DNA of 64,000 nt from Candidatus Woesebacteria bacterium RIFCSPLOWO2_01_FULL_44_24b. Lineage in GTDB: Bacteria; Patescibacteriota; Microgenomatia; UBA8517. The translations under genes were made by a program, and so were the position numbers. Of this stretch, positions 2,934 through 24,859 are shown piece after piece. The notes beneath the pieces are model-generated. The model searched no databases and was not told the DNA's origin. It worked only from the letters and a program-made list of their open reading frames with translations. The stretch covers positions 2,971 through 66,970 of the forward strand of contig MGHM01000017.1 in assembly GCA_001793235.1 (NCBI GenBank), given 5' to 3'. The number at the start of each line of letters is the position of its first letter. Positions within the stretch are counted from its first letter, which is position 1.

Positions 2934-4505
2934 ATGAGCCAGTTTGAAAGGGAAGGGCAAATCTACCTAGGCCGGGAAGTGGAACCAGATAGTGAGAAAA
3001 AAGAATATACAATAGAACCCTCATACGATGCAGCATGGTTTTTAGGAGTTCTTTCCACAGCAGGCTACACTAGAATTCAAGGCAAAAGATACGCCGTACG
3101 TCTTCAAACACAGGATAGTGAGCTAATTGAAAAATTCAGTGCTTTAGGAGAGCAGATCTTAGAGACAAAACCTATTCTTTATACAAACGAGTACTCTGAT
3201 CCCAATAGAAAAATGAGCCAGACAGTTCAATTTTCTGGTAAAAAAGCCGTAACACAAACTGGAGATATGAGAAAAAGTATATGGCCAGCAACAATTGCTA
3301 GAAATCATTCTTGGATAATGGAAGATGATATATATTTATGGAAATTTATTGAAGGCATGTTTGATGCATCAGGACACATAGGAATAGCAGAGAGCTCCAA
3401 AGGAGTTAGGGGATACCTTAGAATTAATTGCCCAACTCAAGAAGGGCTTGTATTTATAAATTCCCTTCTCCAAAGACTTGAATTCAGAAACTCACAAGTT
3501 TATTTAAACCCTAAAGGTCGTGTTGGGTACATAAGAAACTATAGCCAAGAAGAGGTTGTAAATTTCTCTCTTAGCATAAATTCCTGTATAACACAAAAAC
3601 AGGAAAGCCTAGAGATAATGAGAAAAAAAGGAGTTGAAATTGCAAGAAGGAAGGAAAAATCCGAAAGAATAGAAGAACCTTCAACAAACTTAGCGTGGAC
3701 TTTGGGTGTTCTCTCAGCGGCAGGTCATGTAGACCCTAGTGGAGGGAGCATCGGAATAGTAAACAAACACGAAGAACTATTAAAAAAATTTTTGACGGTA
3801 GGTCAGGAGTTGTTCGGTACAACTGGATATCGTTTCAGACTTCAAGGAAAACACCCCGCGATAAAATTCAGTGATACCGCGAGTGCCAGAATTATAGGTG
3901 ACCTACGTTTCACTAACTGGGTTGCTAGAGTAAAGGAAAAATACCCCTGGCTAATTGACAAAGAGTATATATGGGATTTCCTCAGAGGATTCTTTGATGC
4001 TAGAGGGTACGTTAGCGATTTCAACGAATCAGCAGCTTCAAATTTACTGCTTACTCATCCGGACAAAAAAGGATGTAATTTTTTGCAAGACATATTGTTC
4101 GGGTTAGATTTTTCAAATCCTATTGTTGTAAAGAATAAGACCTACAAACAGGGTGTTCGAGGTGTACTTCTCGCGAGAAACGAGGATATAAAAAAGTTTG
4201 CTCAAAGTTTACACTCATGTATACCTGAAAAAGAGGAACGATTAGAAAAATTCCGACATATAATTTATAAAGAAAGCGAAGATCACAAAAGGATTGTTGA
4301 GGCATATGATAAAGTCTTTGAGGTTAGGCGACTCACTGGTTTAGGTTTATACGAGATCTCAAAACTCCCAGAAATAGCTAGCTATGAAATCCCGATAGCT
4401 ACTCTAAGAAAGTGGTTGTTTTACGATGCTAATCCCAGAAACACAAGGCGTAAAGGATTCAAATGGACAAACCCTATTGACATCAAAAAGCCTGACGATA
4501 TATAA
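2934..4505 (+). CDS. Four-motif LAGLIDADG-fold protein (tandem duplicated double-LAGLIDADG module) with C-terminal HTH-like segment; WhiA-like architecture, probably non-catalytic
   Basis: Four LAGLIDADG-like motifs: AWFLGVLSTAGYT, WKFIEGMFDASGHIG, AWTLGVLSAAGHV and WDFLRGFFDARGYVS. The canonical catalytic position (second D of LAGLIDADG) is S/A/R in all four. The C-terminus, GLGLYEISKLPEIASYEIPIATLRKWL, looks like an HTH. Confidence 0.6.
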   Translation: MSQFEREGQIYLGREVEPDSEKKEYTIEPSYDAAWFLGVLSTAGYTRIQGKRYAVRLQTQDSELIEKFSALGEQILETKPILYTNEYSDPNRKMSQTVQFSGKKAVTQTGDMRKSIWPATIARNHSWIMEDDIYLWKFIEGMFDASGHIGIAESSKGVRGYLRINCPTQEGLVFINSLLQRLEFRNSQVYLNPKGRVGYIRNYSQEEVVNFSLSINSCITQKQESLEIMRKKGVEIARRKEKSERIEEPSTNLAWTLGVLSAAGHVDPSGGSIGIVNKHEELLKKFLTVGQELFGTTGYRFRLQGKHPAIKFSDTASARIIGDLRFTNWVARVKEKYPWLIDKEYIWDFLRGFFDARGYVSDFNESAASNLLLTHPDKKGCNFLQDILFGLDFSNPIVVKNKTYKQGVRGVLLARNEDIKKFAQSLHSCIPEKEERLEKFRHIIYKESEDHKRIVEAYDKVFEVRRLTGLGLYEISKLPEIASYEIPIATLRKWLFYDANPRNTRRKGFKWTNPIDIKKPDDI

Positions 4506-4514
4506 ACACTAATC

Positions 4515-6443
4515 ATGCCAGAGAGATCAAAAGGAAAAGAACATAAAGAAATAATACACATACCGGTGGAAGAACTTGCAAAGGATAACCCTCAAATCGA
4601 AACTCCCAACCCTACTAGCTATGACGACATGGTAACTTCTTTTGCTCCTGGTCTATTTGATTCTATTAAGGTGGCAAGAGTTGACTTTGTTGAACAAGGG
4701 CAAATGGTATCGCGTTGGGGGATAGTAGATGGCAACTCCAAAACCAAATTCGCATATGACCACGGAAAAGAACATGGAATTACCGAGTTGGAATGCTACG
4801 ACGCTACACAAGAGTTATTGAGAAACCCAAGAATTGCGGACAGACCTGGTATTAAGAAAAATTCTCTTTCCATCAATGAATATCTAAGAGCAGTTATCCC
4901 ACCCACAAGAGAACATCGTGATATTGCAGCCAGAAGAATTGCTGGTCATATTACTCAAGGGTGGGATGGCTTGGTAGGCCAAGATATCTCTCGAGAATTC
5001 ACTGCTTCCGCGGCCTTAAGCTTACTAAATGACCCAAGAATCTCGACTTCCACAGAATTCTTACTGGCAAGATCAATTTCCAAACTGGACACGATTATAT
5101 CGAACGAAACAGAAGAAAAAAGGCAAATTATTCAGCAAGCTCTCGTTGAAATGAACTATATTCTTCAAGAAAGCCAACTACGACCTGGTGCTGTCTATAA
5201 GGAAATATTTATTTTGGTAGCATCAAAAGACCCGATGATTGGCGGAGCAAAGCAGGCATTACATCAAATGCATGGAGTTCTGAACCTGCCAGCTTTCCAG
5301 TCTAAGCTTGATGAATTAGGTCAAAGAGATATCGCTACTCAGAAGATTACTCAAGATAAACTTGCAAATTTGGCCCTTGAAACTATGAGTCGATTAGAAA
5401 AGGGAAACCAGGATCCGTCGTTGATTCCCACGATACTCCTCGATCAAAATTTAACTTTGGAAGAAACATCTGAAGTCATCTCGAGTGAGCAGGTTGCCAT
5501 AAGGTACGATGAAGTAAGACAAGCCAAACGCAGAAAAGATATAACACAGTCATACTCCGAACTAAAGGGCAGTGCCAGTATCTCCGATCTAGAATTAGAA
5601 TTAATATCAAGGTTTTCTGAGATAAACTTAAAGAGGGAGCAGTTTAAAGACGTTGCAAAGGTTATCCACAAAACGTCCACGACAGTCAATAATGTTACTA
5701 ATCTACTCCTACATATCGAATCTGAGCAAGATTCTTTAACTGAAAGAGGGGTAAAACAAACAACGCTGGATAAAGTTGGGGAGGTACTCTCGGATAATCT
5801 ACAAAATCTAGCTGCTTCTCAATCTCATCATCAACTTAGGCTACGAGAAAATGAGCTAAACACGGCCTATCAAGAATCACTAGAAGCAATACAAAGAGAT
5901 CGGGTTATAGTAAAAACCCAAGCGCAGATAGACTCCCTTATAAGACCAAGGTTAGCAAACTCATTCCGACCAGAAGTTACTGCTGCACTAGAAAAAAGAA
6001 CATTTTTGTATCTCATGGCGCACACCGGGGAGGAAATAAATAATATAGTTCCCCAGTTAATCGATCTGGATATAGACCTTTTAGTACGAGTGGTTGACGG
6101 CTCAGTAACACTTCAACACGCCAAAAACTTACAGAATGGAAGAAACTCGGAATGGCCACTGCCAACAGAACTTCCCCGTAAGGAAATTCCTGCAGAAATT
6201 GCAGAAATACAAAATCTCAAACTTTCAGAAGCTTTAAATAACCTTATTGACGTAATGCAATTTATCGAGTTAAACCCAGATTACTTAACCGTGGAAAATA
6301 AAGAAAAGGGCTGGCAAACAATTGTTGCTTTGGTAAAAATTGTCCACGGCCACCCAGATGCCAAGAGAATGATTGAAGATTATGATTCGTTATTAAAAAA
6401 GGTTATTAGATTACAAGAGCAACTTACCATAAAAAGGGACTAG
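4515..6443 (+). CDS. Large (642 aa) mostly alpha-helical hypothetical protein with ParB/Srx-like (DGQHR/DUF262-like) N-terminal region
   Basis: The N-terminus, IIHIPVEELAKDNPQIETPNP...QMVSRWGIVDGNSKTKFAY, resembles a ParB-fold 'I.V..L..NP.Q.R ... ivDGqhR..A' segment, with a DGNSK variant of DGQHR. The remainder is coiled-coil-like. It starts 10 nt after the previous gene. Confidence 0.45.
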   Translation: MPERSKGKEHKEIIHIPVEELAKDNPQIETPNPTSYDDMVTSFAPGLFDSIKVARVDFVEQGQMVSRWGIVDGNSKTKFAYDHGKEHGITELECYDATQELLRNPRIADRPGIKKNSLSINEYLRAVIPPTREHRDIAARRIAGHITQGWDGLVGQDISREFTASAALSLLNDPRISTSTEFLLARSISKLDTIISNETEEKRQIIQQALVEMNYILQESQLRPGAVYKEIFILVASKDPMIGGAKQALHQMHGVLNLPAFQSKLDELGQRDIATQKITQDKLANLALETMSRLEKGNQDPSLIPTILLDQNLTLEETSEVISSEQVAIRYDEVRQAKRRKDITQSYSELKGSASISDLELELISRFSEINLKREQFKDVAKVIHKTSTTVNNVTNLLLHIESEQDSLTERGVKQTTLDKVGEVLSDNLQNLAASQSHHQLRLRENELNTAYQESLEAIQRDRVIVKTQAQIDSLIRPRLANSFRPEVTAALEKRTFLYLMAHTGEEINNIVPQLIDLDIDLLVRVVDGSVTLQHAKNLQNGRNSEWPLPTELPRKEIPAEIAEIQNLKLSEALNNLIDVMQFIELNPDYLTVENKEKGWQTIVALVKIVHGHPDAKRMIEDYDSLLKKVIRLQEQLTIKRD

Positions 6444-6482
6444 ACTATTTACTTCGTCTTTTATTGGGGATAGAATATCTAT

Positions 6483-7646
6483 ATGGCAAATGCACCTCTT
6501 GCTGAGAAGCTAAGACCAAAGAAATTAAGTGAGTTTATCGGGCAAAGTAATTTGGTCGGAAAAGAAGGAATAATTAGAAAACTCCTTGCCCCAAACGTAG
6601 CCAGAGGCGAAGTGGGGTTCCCGTCACTCATTTTCTGGGGGCCTCCGGGAAGCGGCAAAACAACTTTAGCCCGCATTATTGCCGGTGAGCTCCAGAGACA
6701 ATATTTTGAAATATCTGCCGTCAATGCCTCGTCAAAAGAAATTCAAAAACTGGTCAAGGATAACTCCAACTTTATTCTCTTTATTGACGAGATTCATCGG
6801 TTCAACAAAGCCCAACAAGACAGGCTTTTGCCATATGTGGAAAGGGGAGATTTTATTTTAATTGGTGCAACTACTGAAAACCCATCTTTTGAAGTAATTG
6901 CGCCACTCCTTTCCCGCTCACGGGTGCTGGTTTTAAAACAGCATTCAGAAAAAGAGTTAGAGCTAATCTTAAACAAAGCTCTGAAATACTTAAAAATTAA
7001 AATAGATAAAAAGGCAGAGGAGTTTTTGGTTGAGAGCTCAAACGGCGACGCGCGAGTTTTAATAAATGTTTTAGAAATTGCAAATTCGCTAAAGACTAAA
7101 TATAAAATACTTGATACCACGATTATAGAAAACGCTCTTCAGAGACGTCAGCTTACGTTCGACAAACAAGGCGAGGAGTACTACAACGTCATTTCGGCGT
7201 TTATTAAAAGCATGAGAGCTTCCCAACCCGATGCAGTTCTTTATTATTTAGCGCGAATGGTGGAAGCCGGCCAGGACCCCTTGTATATTGCCAGACGCAT
7301 GGTTGTTTTCGCCAGTGAAGACATTGGCATGGCCCAGCCGACTGCACTGGTCGTTGCCAATGAAGTCTTTCGTGCATGCGAAACTATTGGCTATCCGGAA
7401 TGCGCAATAAATCTGGCTCACGGCGTGGTCTATTTGGCAACGGCCAAAAAGGACCGCTCGGCATATAATGCCTACATGGCGGCACTTTCAGATGTCCGCC
7501 AGCACGGCAATCTTCCGGTTCCCATGAATATCCGAAACCCCTCAACAAAACTCATGAAAGGTTTGGGCTATAGCAAAGGCTACGAAAAATATGATACTCA
7601 AAGTTATTTACCCGATAGACTTAAAGGTAAGAAGTATTATAATTGA
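6483..7646 (+). CDS. rarA: Replication-associated recombination protein A (AAA+ ATPase RarA/MgsA)
   Basis: [17 protein letters not shown]...[22 protein letters not shown]...[16 protein letters not shown]...[11 protein letters not shown]... and C-terminal MgsA_C-like [37 protein letters not shown]. Confidence 0.9.
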
Positions 7647-7649
7647 TTT

Positions 7650-8267
7650 ATGCCAGACGAATTTACAGATCCTACTGAGCACAAGCCAGAAAGTAAATCT
7701 CTGAGTTCTCCAGCCGAAGAAATAAATGCTCTACCTTCCATAGATCAAAGATATGAAACAGGATTAAGTCAAATTGCTAAAGAATTTAGCGATCAAGACA
7801 GGGCCAAAGAACTTACTATTGTTGCAGCCCAGTCACTAAAGCACTTTTTCGACAAAGAGGTTTACGGGGATCCAGAACTTAATGGGATTGATAAACTACC
7901 AACATATTGGTCATATGTTAGATTTTTAACTTGGGATAAGTTGAGACCTCATCTGGGACACGGGGAAACAGAATATGCAAACCACAACTATTCAGACAAA
8001 TTCCTCCAAGATATAAGCGACGAAGCAAATCAAATTTCTGAGCTGATGCCTGAAAATTTAAAACCAGAAGAATGGCATTTTATGGTGCGCGTTTGGTCCC
8101 ATATGCTAATGTCCGATCCTTTTTTGGTGAGACAAGGTTACATTACCGAAGAAGGACGTGACCATATGATTACACATGCTCTGTATGCTGGCCCTTCAGA
8201 TGAAATGTATCATTCGCGATTTAGTCAATGGAGGGATAACCTCTCAACAGGAATAAGAGAATCATAA
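7650..8267 (+). CDS. Hypothetical protein (205 aa)
   Basis: ORF 4 nt after rarA, same strand; no motif recognised. Confidence 0.45.
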   Translation: MPDEFTDPTEHKPESKSLSSPAEEINALPSIDQRYETGLSQIAKEFSDQDRAKELTIVAAQSLKHFFDKEVYGDPELNGIDKLPTYWSYVRFLTWDKLRPHLGHGETEYANHNYSDKFLQDISDEANQISELMPENLKPEEWHFMVRVWSHMLMSDPFLVRQGYITEEGRDHMITHALYAGPSDEMYHSRFSQWRDNLSTGIRES

Positions 8268-8899
8268 TAAAGACAAAGAATAAAATCAAAGCAGTTTTTA
8301 TTGACTGGAATGGTACATTATCTAACTCGAAATTTTTTGGGCATCTAGAAACGGAAAGTCCACAACTATACTCCAGAGTCCAAGATACACTTTTCGGTGG
8401 ACAATTAAGCCACCTGCTAAACCCCTGGATGATTGGAGACTTTGATAGCGAAACCGTCATAAAACACTTGGCAAATAAACTAGATTATCCGTTTAGCAAG
8501 CTCTTCGGCGAGTTTATTAAATCTTGCGAAAATATGCTTATTGATCCGGAAGTTCTTAGCTTGGTTGGTAAAATTAGGGCCAAGAAAATTAAGGTTGTGG
8601 TAGCGACAGACAATATGGATTCCTTCGACAGATGGACGTCGTCTTCGTTAAACCTGAAGAACCACTTCGACGCACTCCTTAATTCTTACAATATAAAGGC
8701 TAGAAAAAATGATTTCGACGAGAATGGTAACAGTTTGTTCTTTGGTGACTACCTAAGCACGCACAAATTGAGCCCTTCAGAAACTATACTAATTGATGAC
8801 TCTGAAGACAAGGAAAATTTACTATCAAACTACGGGGTCAATTGCAGAAAAATAGAATATGGGACAGGACTTAAAGAAGAACTTCGAAACATATTATAA
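8261..8899 (+). CDS. HAD-superfamily hydrolase-like protein; no canonical start codon upstream of motif I (start uncertain; possible frameshifted fusion with the preceding gene)
   Basis: The frame opened at 8240 encodes IKAVFIDWNGTLS (HAD motif I, DxDGT-like with N) at 8291-8329, then KVVVATDNMDS and ILIDDSEDK (motif IV-like). The first ATG/GTG/TTG in this frame is only at 8429, downstream of motif I. Confidence 0.4.
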   Translation: MIIKTKNKIKAVFIDWNGTLSNSKFFGHLETESPQLYSRVQDTLFGGQLSHLLNPWMIGDFDSETVIKHLANKLDYPFSKLFGEFIKSCENMLIDPEVLSLVGKIRAKKIKVVVATDNMDSFDRWTSSSLNLKNHFDALLNSYNIKARKNDFDENGNSLFFGDYLSTHKLSPSETILIDDSEDKENLLSNYGVNCRKIEYGTGLKEELRNIL

Positions 8900-8912
8900 G
8901 AGGAAAAAAGTA

Positions 8913-9206
8913 TTATTGACGTGCTCGTTCGTCCAATACCTTTTCCAGATGCGATAGCGCAGAAGTCGGTTTCCCAATTCGAACAAAATGACCGCTTATC
9001 ACGCCACCCGGAATCACGGTTTCTCCTCCATCCTCAGGATTGGAAATCGCTGCCACCGGGCAACCGCCATCTGATTTATAACCCAATTGGGCCACTATTT
9101 TTTCGTCATCAAATATTGGGCATGTTCCTGTCCAAATAAAGATGCAGTTTGCTGCCTTACAGTTATAATCTGAAACTACAGTTGCTTTTAATCTCTCCGA
9201 GTCCAT
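8913..9206 (-). CDS. Small ferredoxin-like protein (single Fe-S cluster type) with C-terminal extension
   Basis: VVSDYNCKAANCIFIWTGTCPIFDDEKIVAQL...DGGCPVAAISNPED matches the single-cluster ferredoxin pattern VDxxxCxxxxxC...CPxxF..DE...CPVxAI. Confidence 0.45.
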   Translation of the reverse strand: MDSERLKATVVSDYNCKAANCIFIWTGTCPIFDDEKIVAQLGYKSDGGCPVAAISNPEDGGETVIPGGVISGHFVRIGKPTSALSHLEKVLDERARQ

Positions 9207-9271
9207 GGCCTAATATATACTCCCATTACCAAATTTTGTCAAAAGGACTTACTATTAGTATAATTCGTTTT

Positions 9272-9997
9272 ATGTATTCATACAAAGATATCTTCGGAGA
9301 TAAAAAGCGAGTTCTTTTTGTGATGGCCCATCCGGATGATGCCGATGTTTTTTTTGGAGGAATAATTTCGCTTCTGAGGCAAGACAAAAAAGAAGTATTT
9401 GTTTTAGTCATGACTAATGGTTGCCGCGGTAGCCGCGATAATCACATTTCCGAAGACGCCCTCGCGGAAGCCAGAACTGGCGAGCAAAAAAATGCGTTAA
9501 AACAATATGGTGTGCCGGGTACTAACTTTATTTCATTAAATTATAAAGACGGCGAAGCTGAGAATAATATGGAGTTAATCGGCAAAATTGCTTATGTTGT
9601 ACGAAAATTCAAACCAGATATTGTTTGTACGCATAATCCTAATTCATTTTTCTCAAAAAGCTTTACCCAAGATCATTATCATGTTAATCACAAAGACCAT
9701 CGAATTTGCGGCACGTCAACCATGGATGCCGTTTACCCCTTTAGCCGCGACAGAAGCTTTTTTATTGAACACACCCAAGAGGGACTACACCCGCATATCG
9801 TGCGCGCAATGCTATTTACGGCAACTCCAGAGCAGATTAACACCAAAATTGATATCGAAAAAGTCATTAAAACAAAGAAAAATGGAATGGCCAAACACAA
9901 AAGCCAGTTTAACAAGGAAAAGATCGAAGAAATACTCGGGCATTTTAAGGATGGTAAAAATGACGTGGAGAGAGGATTTTATATTAAATTAGGATAA
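9272..9997 (+). CDS. PIG-L/LmbE-family N-acetylglucosaminyl deacetylase-like protein
   Basis: KRVLFVMAHPDDADVFFGG is the signature AHPDD motif of the LmbE/PIG-L family. The start is taken at the ATG at 9272; the ORF-track start at 9149 would overlap the convergent ferredoxin gene. Confidence 0.7.
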   Translation: MYSYKDIFGDKKRVLFVMAHPDDADVFFGGIISLLRQDKKEVFVLVMTNGCRGSRDNHISEDALAEARTGEQKNALKQYGVPGTNFISLNYKDGEAENNMELIGKIAYVVRKFKPDIVCTHNPNSFFSKSFTQDHYHVNHKDHRICGTSTMDAVYPFSRDRSFFIEHTQEGLHPHIVRAMLFTATPEQINTKIDIEKVIKTKKNGMAKHKSQFNKEKIEEILGHFKDGKNDVERGFYIKLG

Positions 9998-10010: not shown

Positions 10011-10826
10011 ATGGTAGAAAATCTTTCCGTAAGGTATAACAACGATAGAGATATTAGAATGGACTTATTGCCACCCCAAGAAGTCACTATAAGTCATATA
10101 GGGGTTAATAACATTCCCTATATAGTTGATCTTGATAAACAAGCTGCCGAAGGTTTATTACATTTAGAGGGAGTACGCAAAGGTTTACCTGTTGACATCG
10201 CATTCGATTATTCTACGGACAATCGAACTGACAAAAGGCTAGAAGAGATCAGAAATAAGTATAAAGATCTCGATAGCAGTGTAGAATTTGCGAATATGCA
10301 CTTGGCTGAATGGAATGTACTATCTAGTTTTTTCTTGGTCCTTTCAACTAGATCAGCATTGGGTTACTTTTTCGAGAAAAACAATAGACTTCAAACTACT
10401 GTAAACGTGGGAACACACCACTATTTCTTTAATGATGAAAAAGACTTCAGACACAGTATCGCATCAACTCTGGCACATGAGATAGGGCATGCCAGGCAAC
10501 CAGCTGACATTCCAACTATGAGGTCTTCATCGATTGAGAAAATTAAGAAGTTATATGAGGTTTATATCCAAACTGTCCTGGGAGAATCAAAGTTACCTAA
10601 ATTGTCAGACAAGCTCTTGTCACACTTGGCCGAAAATACTAAACATCCAGAATTTATTGAGTTACCCAATAACGTCGTTATGACTTTGAATAGCTTAATG
10701 GATCACTTACCTAATATCTTAGCTTTGATTCCGTACTATGTTGTCGAGTCCGAGAGATTTGCAAGAGAATACGCTAAAAGTGCAACTCCAGCTTGGGAAG
10801 AGTTGATTACACTCAGAAAGCTATAG
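10011..10826 (+). CDS. HExxH zinc-metallopeptidase-like protein (ImmA/IrrE- or SprT-like motif), sits between direct repeats
   Basis: TLAHEIGHARQ is an HExxH motif in an ImmA/IrrE- or SprT-type context. The 271-aa ORF starts 13 nt after the deacetylase stop and ends 21 nt before the repeat copy. Confidence 0.5.
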   Translation: MVENLSVRYNNDRDIRMDLLPPQEVTISHIGVNNIPYIVDLDKQAAEGLLHLEGVRKGLPVDIAFDYSTDNRTDKRLEEIRNKYKDLDSSVEFANMHLAEWNVLSSFFLVLSTRSALGYFFEKNNRLQTTVNVGTHHYFFNDEKDFRHSIASTLAHEIGHARQPADIPTMRSSSIEKIKKLYEVYIQTVLGESKLPKLSDKLLSHLAENTKHPEFIELPNNVVMTLNSLMDHLPNILALIPYYVVESERFAREYAKSATPAWEELITLRKL

Positions 10827-10832
10827 ATGAAA

Positions 10833-10996
10833 CTAGCATCACGATGATTGATATCAAAAAAGTCATTAAAACAAAGAAAAATGGAATGGCCAAACATAAA
10901 AGCCAGTTCAACAAAGAAAAGATTGAAGAAATACTCGGGCACTTCAAAGATGGCAAAAAGAATGTGGAGAGAGGGTTTTATATCAAGCTCTCGTGA
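10833..10996 (+). pseudogene. Orphan duplicated 3' fragment of the PIG-L deacetylase gene (roughly 90% nt identity to 9853-9990)
   Basis: Encodes IDIKKVIKTKKNGMAKHKSQFNKEKIEEILGHFKDGKKNVERGFYIKLS, versus IDIEKVIKTKKNGMAKHKSQFNKEKIEEILGHFKDGKNDVERGFYIKLG at the C-terminus of the 9272-9997 gene. Hand alignment of about 140 nt shows roughly 13 mismatches. Confidence 0.6.
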
Positions 10997-20629: not shown

Positions 20630-23600
20630 TTAATTTGAAGTTATAGGTGTATCAGTTGACCAAGCGGGGTCAGTGGTTTGAATGTTGGTTGAACTGCCTC
20701 TAGTGCCATTTCTGTTATTGCCAGATGAGTCCGCGAGTGTTTGCCCGGCGCCTTCATTTAAATGGTAAAGCACCACGGTATTCGCATCGGTTCCAAATAT
20801 CGAAGTTTGAGGAATGAAGTTAGCGGTATATCTGACATTATTTGAGATTCTTACTTCGTCCACAAGCCCTGGAAAATACTCCCCATTGTTATCTCCCGCA
20901 CGGCCTATGTTCAGGCGGCCACTGCTATTTGCAGGCGCTATCGTGCCAGTATCTGTATCTACTAACTGCCCGTTTACAAAAAATCTTCGGGTCCCGCTTG
21001 AATCACGAGTTATCGCAATGTGATACCACTGATTGAGCTGAACCGTTACACCTGAGCACTGCACAGAGTTACCTGCAGCCTGATAATACGCAAACTGGTC
21101 TCCAGCTCCGCAATCAAACCCTCCGCCATCCACATAAAGTGTAAACATCGCTTGATTGTAACTTGAATTTGCATCAGACATAAAAGTTTCATACCTTCCG
21201 GTATCTGTAGTTCTTTTTACCCATGCTTCGTAAGTGTAAACAGTTGAGAGAGGTAAATCCGTGAATCTGGCTAGGTCATTCGTGCCATCAAACTGCAAAC
21301 TTGTTCCGGACGATGGAGGAGTTGGCGTCGGGGTTGGACTTGGAGTCGGCGTCGGCGATGGTGTGGGCGTAGGGGTCGGTGTAGGTGTAGGGGTTGGGGT
21401 TGGAGTTGGTGCACCAAAAGTGATATCACTGGTTACATATACAGGACCTACCGGGTTGCCTCCTACATTTATAGTACCGTTCGTAGGTGAGCCAGTAACT
21501 GTTGCACTGTCCGAAGCAACTGTCCCGCTTCCTTCATTAAAATGATAGAGCCCAACTGTGTTTGTATCTGGTGCCCAAGCTCCAGTCGGCAAACCAAAAT
21601 TCTGGTCGTAGCGAACAATATTTGAAACACGAACTTCGTCAACTATTCCAGTATATGAAGGGTAAGCGCTCCCCGCATCGTGTTTTTCTGCACCTATCAC
21701 AAGATATGGATCGCTCCCGGGGTAGCTTGTAACTCTTGCATCACGATAGCTAACGTCTCCCATCAAGCCGCTAGCGGTTGCATCCAAGTTCCCATCAACA
21801 TAAACACTCAATTGACCAGTTAATCCGTTTCTTATTGCCGCCACATGATGCCAGGTATTATCTGCTACAAGAGTTGCCCCGCAAACAGTGTTGCCTGAAC
21901 TCCCCTGACTCACTCCAAATGCGACTTGCCCGTTTGTAAGGGAAACCCCATAGTCGCCATAATCGCCAGAGCCGAACACATCGCGGTCAAAAATAATATT
22001 TCCCGTAATCCAGCCAGCTTCAACTCCACAGGAGGCAACTCCACTATTTCCAGTCAACGGCGCTTTCATCCACCACTCAAGAGTGAAATCTCCTCCAACA
22101 TCAACGGGAGTTTGTGGGTCAATAGGGATTTTTACTCTGTCAATGTCGCCCGTGCCGTTTCCAAAAAACTGGAGTGCGTGCCCACCCGTTCCGGGCGTCG
22201 GTGTCGGGGTAGGAGTTGGCGAGGGAGTGGCGGTAGGAGTCGGGGTTGGTGTAGGTAACACGCCGGTGAGCGGTGTATTCATAGCTAATGCTATTTCAGA
22301 CTGATTTAAAGCTCTGTCATATACTCTGACTTCGTCCATCACACCGCTGAAGAAATCAAAGTTACTGCTTCCGCTAATCCATGCCCCAACTTGCAAAGTG
22401 TTTGTTAAACTTGCCAGACTCATGTTCTGCGGAGTACCAACTGGAGTACCGTTCAAATATGCCTGCATTTGAGAACCGTTGTAAGTAATGGCCACATGTT
22501 GCCAAGTTCCCGTGGGTACCGTACTACCTAGCACTATATCTGCCGAGCCGTTATAAAATGTCGGTACTCCGGTTCCTAGATAAAAGTCCCTGGGAGAACC
22601 TACCGTGGCAATTGTTTCATAACTTTGATTTGTGGGGTTATTTACCCAGGCCATGTAGGTAAACTGTGCGGGAAGCGGAAAGGAGGCCACCGAGCCGCGG
22701 TCGTCTGAGCCGTCCAAGTTTAAGCCTCCACCATACTTCCCTGTAGTATTCCAGATTGGGCTACCAGCAAGTGCCAGGTTTCTATTGTTGCCTGATGAGT
22801 CATTTGCAGTCGTACCGCTGCCGTCTTCAAATGCATAACCTGCCAAAAGGCCGGTTGCCGGAGGCGGTGTTGGAGTAGGTGTTGGTGTTGCTCCAGGTTG
22901 ATAAGTTGCAACATAAGACTGAGGAGTGTCTGGAGCCGTGATTGTGTGTGTTGCTGCTCCACCGTCGCTCCACGAGACAAAATCAAACCCTCCCTGAGAA
23001 AGAGGTGCCTCAATATTGTGTTGAAAATTAACTACAGTATTTAGTACAGTTGGAGTAACTTTAACAAAGCCGTCAATGTTTACCGTGAGTCCTGTTGGAG
23101 ATGTGTCAAAACTCAAGTCGACGGTTTCCGGAATAATGTTTACTGCGTTTGTCGCTTTCAAGCCGTCTGAGTCAGTTACCGTCAACACAAACTGAAATTG
23201 CATTTCATTGTTTATTTCATGCCCAGAGGTAGGAACGCCAAACACTCCACTTGAGCCGCTAACCGGGCCCGCTTCAGGATGAGTATGGCTTAAGTGAATC
23301 AAGAAAACATCCCAAGAATAATTCGCTTCAGCCAAAGTCCCGTCAGCATCAGACGCGCTCGAGCTAAAATTGGCATTCTCCCCGGCTCTGAATGTAATTT
23401 GACCGCCTGGCTGGTCAGACGGAGTAGTTACCGAAATTAAATCAATCACAGGAGGAGTGCCAACAATTATTGTGATGGGGTCGGACAAAGTCTGATTCAC
23501 ACCATCCGAAACCGTAAGCCTCGCGGTATATTGTCCTTTTTGCTGATACTCATGGCTTGGGTTTTGTTGAGTGGACGGAGGAGTACCATCGCCAAATTCC

Positions 23601-24859
23601 CAAGAGTAGGTAATAGGCTGACTTTCAGGATCAGTCGCGCTGGCTGTAAAGTTGACCGTAAGCGGTGCATTCGGCCCGCTGGTTGGATTCGCGCTGGCTG
23701 TAGCAATCACCGGTGGCTGATTTGCCGCGGTGTACTTTATTCTTCTCACAGTCCCCGGGTTACTCTGCCCTTCCCAAGAAATACCAATGTCTACATAATA
23801 AAGAGCCCCATCCGGCCCCTGTTCAAAATCAACTATTTCACCATACGGCCCATTTACAGTCCCATTGGCAGGTTCAAAATTAAAGGTGCCGTTTAGAACT
23901 CCAGTTGTGGGATCAAGATCAAGCCCGCGCACGAAGTTTCGCACATAATCTCCATAAAAATAGTCTCCTTGGTAACTCGCGGGGAAGTTGCCTCCGCGAT
24001 ACACAAAACCTCCAGTTACTGACGCGTCGCTGCCACCGTGGGGATAAGAAAAAAGCGGATTAGTCATGCCTGCCGTCCCGCAGCTTCCCTCACAAACTGG
24101 CCAGCCATAATTAGCCCCCGCTACTGCCACATTTATTTCTTCTATCGAATTTGCTGCGTCATTACCGCCAACATCTCCGATATAAATCTTTCCCGTCGGA
24201 GCATCCAACGAAATCCTGAATGGATTCCTAAGTCCCCTCGCCCAAATATAATCATAATTGGGTCCTGCATCGTCCCAAAAAGGATTATCCTGAGGAGTTG
24301 TGCCGTCTGTGTTTACTCTTAAAATTTTTCCTTGGTAACTGGTCAAGCTTTGTGAATTATTTGCAGCATCAAAGCCGTCCCCGGTTGAAATATAAAGTTT
24401 GCCGTCAGGGCCAACTATAACCGAGCCCCCATGATGCCAAAGATCGGCATCCTGAGGTGCCTCCCAAACTAGAAACTCACTACCTACACTTGCCGTGTTG
24501 CCGGTTGCCGTAAAGCGCGCTACTCTATCACGAAGAGGCGAGCCATGGGTGTAAAAAAGATAAAAAAAGCCGTTTGTTGTAAAATTTGAGTCAAGATCAA
24601 TCCCGGTTAATCCCCGCTCACCTTGATCAATATTAATATTAGTTATTTGCATAAATGGCGTGGGGTCAACTACTGAAGCTCCTGCTTGCACAATATGAAC
24701 TGTTCCATCACGCTCTAAAACTAACATCCTGCCATCCGGCAAAAATTCAATTGTAGTAGGCTGGTCAAGGCCGGTAATTAGGGTTTCACTGACAAAGTCT
24801 GGTGGAGGAGCGGCTTGCGCAATTTTGGGGGTTAAAAGAAATACTCCCTGCTGGAGCAA
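20630..24859 (-). CDS. Giant (1409 aa) secreted surface protein: N-terminal glucose/sorbosone-dehydrogenase-like beta-propeller, PKD/Ig-like domains, three LamG/ConA-like domains joined by Pro-Thr linkers
   Basis: Signal peptide; GLDQPTTIEFLPDGRMLVLERDGTVHIV (soluble quinoprotein dehydrogenase-type propeller); PKD-like PITYSWEFGDGTP...YTARLTVSD; LamG-like ...DEVRVYDRALNQSEI / DEVRVSNIVRY / DEVRISNNVRY; (PT)n linkers. Confidence 0.8.
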   Translation of the reverse strand: MLQQGVFLLTPKIAQAAPPPDFVSETLITGLDQPTTIEFLPDGRMLVLERDGTVHIVQAGASVVDPTPFMQITNINIDQGERGLTGIDLDSNFTTNGFFYLFYTHGSPLRDRVARFTATGNTASVGSEFLVWEAPQDADLWHHGGSVIVGPDGKLYISTGDGFDAANNSQSLTSYQGKILRVNTDGTTPQDNPFWDDAGPNYDYIWARGLRNPFRISLDAPTGKIYIGDVGGNDAANSIEEINVAVAGANYGWPVCEGSCGTAGMTNPLFSYPHGGSDASVTGGFVYRGGNFPASYQGDYFYGDYVRNFVRGLDLDPTTGVLNGTFNFEPANGTVNGPYGEIVDFEQGPDGALYYVDIGISWEGQSNPGTVRRIKYTAANQPPVIATASANPTSGPNAPLTVNFTASATDPESQPITYSWEFGDGTPPSTQQNPSHEYQQKGQYTARLTVSDGVNQTLSDPITIIVGTPPVIDLISVTTPSDQPGGQITFRAGENANFSSSASDADGTLAEANYSWDVFLIHLSHTHPEAGPVSGSSGVFGVPTSGHEINNEMQFQFVLTVTDSDGLKATNAVNIIPETVDLSFDTSPTGLTVNIDGFVKVTPTVLNTVVNFQHNIEAPLSQGGFDFVSWSDGGAATHTITAPDTPQSYVATYQPGATPTPTPTPPPATGLLAGYAFEDGSGTTANDSSGNNRNLALAGSPIWNTTGKYGGGLNLDGSDDRGSVASFPLPAQFTYMAWVNNPTNQSYETIATVGSPRDFYLGTGVPTFYNGSADIVLGSTVPTGTWQHVAITYNGSQMQAYLNGTPVGTPQNMSLASLTNTLQVGAWISGSSNFDFFSGVMDEVRVYDRALNQSEIALAMNTPLTGVLPTPTPTPTATPSPTPTPTPTPGTGGHALQFFGNGTGDIDRVKIPIDPQTPVDVGGDFTLEWWMKAPLTGNSGVASCGVEAGWITGNIIFDRDVFGSGDYGDYGVSLTNGQVAFGVSQGSSGNTVCGATLVADNTWHHVAAIRNGLTGQLSVYVDGNLDATASGLMGDVSYRDARVTSYPGSDPYLVIGAEKHDAGSAYPSYTGIVDEVRVSNIVRYDQNFGLPTGAWAPDTNTVGLYHFNEGSGTVASDSATVTGSPTNGTINVGGNPVGPVYVTSDITFGAPTPTPTPTPTPTPTPTPSPTPTPSPTPTPTPPSSGTSLQFDGTNDLARFTDLPLSTVYTYEAWVKRTTDTGRYETFMSDANSSYNQAMFTLYVDGGGFDCGAGDQFAYYQAAGNSVQCSGVTVQLNQWYHIAITRDSSGTRRFFVNGQLVDTDTGTIAPANSSGRLNIGRAGDNNGEYFPGLVDEVRISNNVRYTANFIPQTSIFGTDANTVVLYHLNEGAGQTLADSSGNNRNGTRGSSTNIQTTDPAWSTDTPITSN
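21313..21414 (-). repeat. In-frame (Pro-Thr)n coding microsatellite-like linker repeat inside the giant surface protein gene (second copy at 22185-22262, third near 22862-22895)
   Basis: ggngtnggngtnggn periodicity visible on the + strand (GVGVGV in the antisense frame); corresponds to the PTPTPTPT linkers. Confidence 0.7.

Follow-up and report, generated by a model that had tools for sequence, protein, structure and literature searches.

Can a protein that has lost the catalytic acids of the homing endonucleases it resembles still read DNA, and does it do so jointly with the product of the gene beside it? This question is raised by a locus on contig MGHM01000017.1 of Candidatus Woesebacteria bacterium RIFCSPLOWO2_01_FULL_44_24b, analysed here within a stretch of 64,000 nucleotides (nt) that we call the window. 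Two adjacent open reading frames (ORFs), whose positions the initial annotation had given correctly, are at issue:

2934..4505, plus strand: P1, an ORF of 523 amino acids (aa) with two LAGLIDADG units and no catalytic acids
4515..6443, plus strand: P2, an ORF of 642 aa, the partner protein, from a family with no Pfam model

Proteins identical to P1 and P2 are on record as the hypothetical proteins A2803_04710 and A2803_04715 of Candidatus Woesebacteria bacterium RIFCSPHIGHO2_01_FULL_44_21, a Microgenomates member of the Candidate Phyla Radiation (CPR). Our preferred reading, to which we assign a probability of about one half, is that P1 and P2 form a lineage-specific, chromosomally encoded two-protein module that binds DNA at specific sites without cleaving it. 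A literature search on the pair returned only CPR intron-encoded LAGLIDADG endonucleases and unrelated work, and its conservation across related bacteria has apparently not been described.

The LAGLIDADG protein P1 and its family

The initial annotation described P1 as carrying four LAGLIDADG-like motifs with the catalytic acid replaced, and both Pfam and a comparison of the two halves of the protein bear this out. P1 matches LAGLIDADG_3 (PF14528) with an E value of 2.8e-13 (50.4 bits, cutoff 22.5) over aa 348-425, and the consensus of its family matches the same model over two stretches (1.5e-25, 89.7 bits). The N- and C-terminal halves of P1 share 28% identity over 205 aa (E 4e-28), which indicates that the protein consists of two tandem units of ~205 aa, each with two motifs ~100 aa apart. 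The units, with their scores against the family unit hidden Markov model (HMM), and the motifs are placed as follows:

3006..3638 (aa 25-235), plus strand: LAGLIDADG unit 1, family unit HMM 2e-54
3039-3068 (aa 36-45), plus strand: motif 1, FLGVLSTAGY, position 8 = A
3345-3377 (aa 138-148), plus strand: motif 2, FIEGMFDASGH, position 8 = S
3666..4271 (aa 245-446), plus strand: LAGLIDADG unit 2, family unit HMM 6e-61
3699-3728 (aa 256-265), plus strand: motif 3, TLGVLSAAGH, position 8 = A
3978-4010 (aa 349-359), plus strand: motif 4, FLRGFFDARGY, position 8 = R

Position 8 of the LAGLIDADG alignment is the catalytic acid, and in P1 it is occupied by A, S, A and R, none of them acidic. A profile of 38 units searched against the PDB has its only meaningful matches among solved LAGLIDADG enzymes, aligned in register at both motifs; these are the VMA inteins 7qsu (1.9e-5) and 7qss (2.8e-5), PI-PkoII, PI-PfuI, I-Tsp061I, I-DmoI and the bI3 maturase 2ab5 (E 0.01). 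In these alignments the G of motif 1 and the R of motif 2 that typify the family fall on the catalytic D/E of the enzymes. P1 also matches PHROG 4645, annotated as 'endonuclease' (4e-14). From its sequence, P1 is a duplicated, catalytically degenerate LAGLIDADG-fold protein, and a plain homing endonuclease is ruled out by the absence of the catalytic acids. P1 moreover has its own start and stands free, with protein-coding genes on either side; Pfam detects no Hint domain in it, the window holds no intron or ribosomal RNA, and no RNA family lies nearby, in agreement with the claim that it does not lie inside an intron or intein.

Word-indexed protein searches returned almost no relatives of P1, while an exhaustive HMMER search over 1.84 billion representatives recovered 238 cluster representatives at E <= 1e-3 and 159 at E <= 1e-10. 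Among the top 150, one unit is present in 132, two in 17 and three in 1. The duplication, which the initial annotation had singled out as twice the usual double motif, is thus genuine, yet it recurs in the family: 18 of 150 representatives have two or three units. Many members also contain PF18780 (HNH_repeat, a homing-endonuclease-associated repeat).

Degeneracy at the former active site is widespread in this family. Position 8 is G in motif 1 in 105 of 167 units and R or K in motif 2 in 114 of 167, and an acid is kept in both motifs in only 10 of 167. None of the 23 units adjacent to a P2 partner retains the acid pair, the single acidic exception among them being locus L007 (E in motif 1, S in motif 2). 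Two loci from DPANN archaea that have no P2 (L005 and L010) show the motifs GVMAGDGS and GYFDSEGS with canonical D/E acids. Catalytic-residue loss therefore tracks the presence of the P2 partner.

The best profile matches to the family are intein-borne or archaeal LAGLIDADG_3 endonucleases (PI-PfuI 1dq3, PI-PkoII 2cw7, VMA 7qss, I-Tsp061I 2dch and I-DmoI). A minority of the family, L005 and L010 included, is like these active enzymes in still carrying GDG / S[DE]G motifs, whereas P1 and its partner-linked relatives have G/A/S in motif 1 (E in L007) and R/K/S in motif 2. P1 further differs from the intein and archaeal endonucleases in having no Hint/intein domain, in not being intron-borne and in the duplication of its unit. 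P1 would then descend from an archaeal or intein-type LAGLIDADG homing endonuclease, and it presumably cannot cut because its metal-binding acids have been lost in every motif. It may nevertheless keep the DNA-binding saddle, doubled to two saddles (four LAGLIDADG domains) and followed by an HTH-like (helix-turn-helix-like) tail.

The two archaeal genes (L005 1569-2489 and L010 3292-4212, in metagenome-assembled genomes (MAGs) of Nanoarchaeia/Woesearchaeota) combine intact GDG/SEG motifs with an HTH-like tail as in P1, and are flanked by genes for an EpsG-like membrane protein and a polysaccharide flippase. The upstream gene was considered as a divergent P2 and rejected, its product being the EpsG-like membrane protein. 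Judging by their motifs, the two genes probably encode active free-standing homing endonucleases, and they hint at exchange between archaea and CPR bacteria.

The tail of P1 is homologous (aa ~447-515) to tails in 15 family members, the catalytically intact archaeal ones included:

4272..4502 (aa 447-523), plus strand: C-terminal tail of P1, with an HTH-like core at 4347-4418 (LYEISKLPEIASYEIPIATLRKWL)

The HTH signals in these tails are weak and generic (HTH_23 at 1.6e-4 in 2 of the 15; for the consensus, HTH_32 at 0.0045 and a Brinker HTH at 0.17), the tail consensus matching only generic HTH_32 and HTH_12 models in Pfam. The C-terminal HTH proposed by the initial annotation is thus echoed weakly in the homologous tails but not in P1's own, which has no Pfam match; we regard the assignment as plausible.

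That annotation also spoke of a WhiA-like domestication. WhiA, a sporulation and cell-division regulator defined by PF14527 and PF02650 (T. maritima structure 3HYI), is like P1 a free-standing bacterial LAGLIDADG-fold protein with lost catalytic residues and a C-terminal HTH-type element (HTH-like in P1). It differs in having one double-motif unit where P1 has two full ones and in having no counterpart of the 640-740-aa partner of P1, and the closest solved relatives of P1 are intein and archaeal enzymes rather than WhiA. P1 scores 16.9 bits against LAGLIDADG_WhiA (PF14527), under the cutoff of 23.2, which is exceeded by no more than the family consensus (27 bits) and a single relative (25.5 bits). 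Pfam finds neither the WhiA HTH (PF02650) nor the WhiA N-terminal domain in P1 at E up to 1, and no WhiA structure is among the PDB matches of the family profile. The WhiA models having failed, identity of P1 as a WhiA orthologue is rejected; the resemblance is one of analogy and not of family membership.

A different function for a dead LAGLIDADG protein is exemplified by the yeast bI3 maturase (2ab5), in which the fold is kept for nucleic-acid binding. P1 could by this model be a splicing cofactor, a trans-acting maturase like mitochondrial bI3 for group I introns in CPR ribosomal and transfer RNA genes, with P2 as its RNA-binding or chaperone partner. The family profile does match bI3, if weakly (E 0.01), and loss of the catalytic acids, typical of maturases, fits as well. 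Introns are plentiful in CPR ribosomal and transfer RNA genes according to two reports (PMC11270868, PMC13011429). Known maturases, however, bind RNA and are encoded inside the intron they serve, whereas P1-family genes stand free among housekeeping genes, carry DNA-binding accessories (HNH_repeat PF18780 and the HTH-like tails) and have a conserved protein partner. The best, weak similarity of that partner is moreover to nucleotide- or DNA-binding ParB/Srx proteins, and the window contains no intron or ribosomal RNA. We consider a maturase role improbable.

The P1-P2 pair across loci

Protein searches with P2 found only two distant homologues, each followed after 3-4 nt by a degenerate LAGLIDADG protein of ~300 aa (L001, L002). 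From the LAGLIDADG side alone, a hand-built degenerate DNA pattern for the unit motif, with 0 chance matches in shuffles of the window, identified 9 loci in 185,579 species genomes. In six of these the LAGLIDADG gene is directly preceded on its own strand by a P2 homologue of 710-743 aa (E 1e-109 to 1e-158); the remainder comprise one locus cut at the P2 position and the two DPANN archaeal loci without P2. When metagenome contigs were scanned with a P2 alignment, 13 loci were found, one of them truncated and not assessable (L022), and 11 of the other 12 have an adjacent same-strand LAGLIDADG-family gene. After removal of near-duplicates, 17 of 18 assessable P2 loci adjoin such a gene, with gaps of 3-39 nt or short overlaps. 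The pairing of P1 with the downstream 642-aa protein is therefore well founded. No gene outside the P1 and P2 families is common to the loci.

The loci with the pair come from genomes and metagenomes of CPR bacteria of the Microgenomates type, namely Woese-, Davies- and Levybacteria along with unnamed relatives. Three MAG records (L003, L004 and L007) are labelled 'uncultured Gammaproteobacteria' and the other bacterial carriers CPR/Microgenomates; these labels are unchecked and may be wrong.

Across loci, pairwise identity in P2 correlates with that in its partner (r 0.63, Mantel p 2e-4), and the two proteins co-diverge down to 23-25% identity. Two gene orders are found, namely a two-unit LAGLIDADG gene followed by P2 (the window, L012 and L014/L015), and P2 followed by one LAGLIDADG gene or by two (two in L007, L017 and L019). 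Two units per P2 hence recur, either fused (the window, L012 and L014) or as separate genes (L007, L017 and L019), and the units of one locus tend to be mutual closest relatives. This kinship within loci and the recurring unit number suggest that the unit has been duplicated repeatedly and that P2 recurrently requires two of them. Further, in three LAGLIDADG-family representatives (P0150, P0022 and P0125) C-terminal extensions match segments of the helical and C-terminal regions of P2, P0150 having a whole-sequence E of 6e-10 in a search of 150 proteins. These proteins may be fusions of the two partners and are a modest hint that the partners work together.

The linkage bears on the idea that P1 is a WhiA-like regulator of transcription or the cell cycle and P2 an unrelated co-expressed protein, the two forming no joint DNA machine. 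The dead LAGLIDADG domains and HTH-like tail do parallel WhiA, and the family consensus lies just over the WhiA LAGLIDADG cutoff (27 vs 23.2 bits). Against this, P1 itself reaches 16.9 bits and shows no WhiA HTH, N-terminal domain or PDB match, and the tight linkage, the catalytic loss correlated with P2 and the fusion proteins speak for a joint function. We regard independent action of the two proteins as unlikely.

The rarA gene, which begins 39 nt past P2 and is separated from it by no predicted terminator, had been taken by the initial annotation as part of the same module. Of the order LAGLIDADG-ParB-like-rarA, the first two members are conserved and rarA is not; it is adjacent in the window only and in 0 of the 21 other P2-bearing locus entries (L001-L004, L006-L009 and L012-L024), among them the closest relative, L012 (38% identity). 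The only AAA+ match elsewhere is RuvB in L011, the LAGLIDADG-side locus cut at the P2 position. The idea of a fork-maintenance module wired to RarA can appeal to genes such as ruvAB, ssb or dnaE beside other loci, yet the gene order speaks against it; we reject it as a RarA-coupled module and hold it to be very improbable. In short, rarA is a local neighbour and not part of the pair.

Elsewhere the neighbours are ordinary chromosomal genes. Those related to DNA are rpsF-ssb (L003, L004), ruvA-ruvB (L011), dnaE (L014), dcd (L008), TatD (L001) and a DHH protein (L013), and others encode PNPase (polynucleotide phosphorylase), BipA, aminotransferases, a PIN toxin, a Bro-N protein and DUF5615. That the pair often lies beside DNA-related genes is a soft trend, given here without statistics.

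Surroundings that differ at every locus, and a few neighbours of the PIN, Bro-N or DUF5615 kind, would also be expected of a selfish two-component homing or mobile element in which the LAGLIDADG protein recognises the target and a ParB-like nuclease domain of P2 cuts it. Descent from homing endonucleases, with intact members still in the family, agrees with such an element, and some ParB/Srx domains are indeed nucleases. The pair, however, is present in one copy in the 64-kb window, is flanked by housekeeping genes without bounding repeats, and co-diverges as described above; P2, at 640-740 aa, is mostly a helical scaffold, and where the LAGLIDADG units once had their active site, a conserved basic residue speaks for binding and not cutting. 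The P1 and P2 families also have no match in 2.9 million viral contigs, and a tblastn search with the P2 N-terminus against phage and plasmid collections returned nothing. On this balance a selfish element appears unlikely.

A role in anti-phage defence is suggested by the frequency of DGQHR/ParB-like domains and nuclease-derived proteins in defence islands. In PADLOC, nevertheless, neither P1 nor P2 nor any of three relatives has a significant match (best E 0.017-0.03), the neighbours are housekeeping genes and not defence islands, and no active nuclease motif is present, which leaves a defence system highly unlikely.

The P2 N-terminus and a proposed joint role on DNA

The window P2 has no match in Pfam, NCBIfam, PADLOC, PHROG or the PDB by sequence, and the same holds for eight relatives and for family consensus sequences. 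The analysis covered 19 distinct P2-bearing loci including the window, and 17 full-length sequences were aligned; P2 proteins are 640-740 aa long. Three regions can be distinguished in the window copy:

4551..4772 (aa 13-86), plus strand: candidate ParB/Srx-like core, with an NP box, the beta strand 'VARV' and 'VDGNSKTK' (family consensus vvDG.TRTK)
4773..5309 (aa 87-265), plus strand: most conserved part of P2, with the blocks LQYLRAV...T.EH..IA..RIA.H...W..VG and LV....IGG...KL
5412..6134 (aa ~300-540), plus strand: all-helical body, with long helices and an AlphaFold2 (AF2) predicted local distance difference test (pLDDT) score of 75-92

Invariant in all 17 members are N25, P26, Y36, V56, D72, G73 and D82 within aa 13-86, and T98, L118, Y123, T131, H134, I137, R141, A143, H145, W150, G155, E198, L234, I242, G243, G244 and K264 within aa 87-265. 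Two residues past 'DG.T', 15 of the 17 have an Arg, where the window copy has Lys. The AF2 model, built from a 3-sequence alignment, is confident for the helical body, and a Foldseek search with it against the PDB returned nothing with E below 0.3.

The initial annotation had likened the P2 N-terminus to a ParB/Srx fold, naming two strings that are indeed present, IPVEELAKDNPQIETPNP at aa 16-33 and WGIVDGNSKTKFA at aa 68-80. We compared P2 by hhalign with profiles built from real plasmid ParB proteins taken from annotated records. With 7 ParBs the comparison gave P 0.0066 and a score of 24.2 (column-shuffle null 10.5 ± 1.5, maximum 15.0). The signal strengthened when the profile was enlarged to 13 sequences (P 0.0015, score 27.7 over 65 columns; column-shuffle null 10.0 ± 1.8, maximum 15.5), with a probability of 17%, which is below any database-level threshold. 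The register is constant and places the P2 NP box on the NP..PR box of ParB, 'DppqVarV' on 'lQPi.V' and 'vvDG.TRTK' on 'ii.GeRR.rA'. The claimed fold is thus weakly favoured by an in-register hhalign match but finds no counterpart in Pfam, NCBIfam or PADLOC even with the consensus; we consider a ParB/Srx-like N-terminus plausible and somewhat favoured, though unproven.

Compared with the ParB/Noc/KorB cytidine triphosphate-dependent DNA clamps (PF02195), P2 has the NP box, the 'qPi.V' strand and DG.TR against GERR in register, its conserved Arg (Lys in the window copy) aligning to the second Arg of ParB. It differs in having no Pfam match and no recognisable ParB HTH or C-terminal dimerisation domain, and in being 2-3 times larger and mostly helical. 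A ParB HMM found nothing in the window or in loci L001-L024, and no ParA turned up among the Pfam-scanned neighbours of the pair. The 'vvDG.TR' box also resembles the DGHHR/DGQHR box of DGxHR-box proteins (SerK 5x0e, DndB, DUF262/GmrSD). The PADLOC models for DndB, SspE and GmrSD, however, do not match P2, and P2 has no HNH/DUF1524 nuclease domain as in DUF262/GmrSD. The best PDB profile match of the P2 family is the free serine kinase SerK (5x0e; E 0.8, not significant), which has a ParB/Srx fold; it aligns 'vvDGltr' on 'IVDGHHR' with a second collinear segment within P2 aa 87-265.

Two features of the family stand apart from this comparison. A conserved 'D(T/A)RTGR'-like C-terminal tail (variants STSR, NRTR and RTDR) ends 11 of the 17 P2 proteins (L003, L004, L007-L009, L013, L017-L020 and L023) and is found neither in the window copy (6420-6443) nor at the other loci with the order LAGLIDADG then P2. 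In L001 (GCA_041643115.1) the P2 homologue P0003 is split between 7580-7789 and 7786-9714, the conserved 'DP..L..DNPAA' box of the N-terminus falling in a 69-aa ORF in another frame; the split reflects either a frameshift or a mistake in the assembly.

Taken together, the preferred reading of a non-cleaving DNA-binding module would have the dead LAGLIDADG protein act as a long-site, sequence-specific reader, of DNA rather than RNA, in a physical complex with P2. P2, with its strongly conserved N-terminal ~265 aa, probably opening with a nucleotide-binding ParB/Srx-like domain, and the long helical body that follows, would contribute an activity on the chromosome's DNA that depends on nucleotide or provides a scaffold, for instance clamping, bridging or recruitment. 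A more specific version, which we put forward tentatively and as doubtful, is an undescribed two-component DNA machine of Microgenomates-type CPR bacteria, in which a domesticated, non-cleaving LAGLIDADG reader of a ~20-40 bp site loads a nucleotide-dependent protein of the ParB/Srx type onto the chromosome or positions it there. The reader would have a single saddle or a pair of them, in fused or separate genes, and the machine might be a functional analogue of ParB-parS/Noc that has outsourced recognition to a dead homing endonuclease.

Several findings weigh against the module. Genes that lie side by side and diverge together need not encode a physical complex, locus L016 has a P2 without a LAGLIDADG neighbour, and the phyletic spread rests on about 20 loci, three of them MAGs with Gammaproteobacteria labels. 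Dead LAGLIDADG proteins can also be RNA maturases, and a repeat search of the window for binding sites (a candidate DNA target) gave nothing convincing. AF2 of P1 alone, with no alignment, reached a pLDDT of 33 and no usable structure. For the ParB/Srx-like domain, the low hhalign probability and the non-significant SerK match as best PDB hit count on the same side. So do the absence of a Pfam ParBc (PF02195) match for 9 P2 members or the family consensus at permissive E, the absence of ParB from the PDB profile search with the P2 family, and the lack of a usable AF2 model for residues 1-137 (pLDDT < 40). Of the alternatives, the maturase, selfish-element and WhiA-like explanations keep a low probability, and the RarA and defence readings are poorly supported.

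To our knowledge, domestication of homing endonucleases into DNA-binding factors is represented by very few cases (WhiA, maturases and HO-related proteins), and the non-cleaving P1-P2 module, if real, would add a case from CPR bacteria that is independent and lineage-wide. It would be unusual in that loss of the catalytic residues coincides with gain of a fixed protein partner, that a whole two-domain unit has been duplicated repeatedly to give four-domain readers, and that the partner, from a large Pfam-less family, may have a nucleotide-binding domain of the ParB/Srx type. In the very small genomes of CPR bacteria about half of the genes lack annotation; the pair offers a concrete experimental target for chromosome handling in these bacteria, and its natural tandem dead LAGLIDADG scaffolds may interest protein engineers.

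The window around the pair

The genes next to P1 and P2 in the window are the following:

2229-2888, divergent and upstream of P1: 219-aa ORF with a methyltransferase/spermidine-synthase fold (Pfam Spermine_synth 3.5e-7, Methyltransf_25 7e-6)
6483-7646: rarA (Pfam MgsA_C 3.2e-51, with AAA and AAA_assoc_2)
7650-8267: 205-aa ORF after rarA, no Pfam or NCBIfam match
8429-8899: 156-aa ORF, weak haloacid dehalogenase (HAD)-like match

The gaps between these genes only partly agree with those first given. The 39 nt between P2 and rarA fall within the claimed 4-40 nt, but P1 and P2 are separated by 9 nt and not ten, and the remaining gaps are 3 nt (rarA to the 205-aa ORF) and 161 nt (before the last gene). 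Co-transcription of the P1-P2 region is plausible; promoter and terminator scans of the window gave signals no better than shuffles. Within the 64 kb of the window no further LAGLIDADG gene and no paralogue of P2 occur, nor any ParB.

We further note a 133-aa ORF at 1840-2241 that adjoins the methyltransferase-fold gene and has no Pfam or NCBIfam match. Beyond the last gene of the list, a 147-nt direct repeat (9841-9987 and 10840-10986; 130/147 identical, spacing 999 nt) flanks a 271-aa ORF without a Pfam match (10011-10826). The first copy is the 3' end of a PIG-L-like deacetylase ORF (9149-9997), and the second encodes the same ~50 C-terminal residues and stop codon; the arrangement looks like an insertion that has duplicated the 3' end of its target gene. 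Farther on, G-rich repeats at 21317-22256 lie within a 1409-aa minus-strand ORF (20630-24859), and their 12/18-nt periodicity indicates a repetitive low-complexity segment in the encoded protein.

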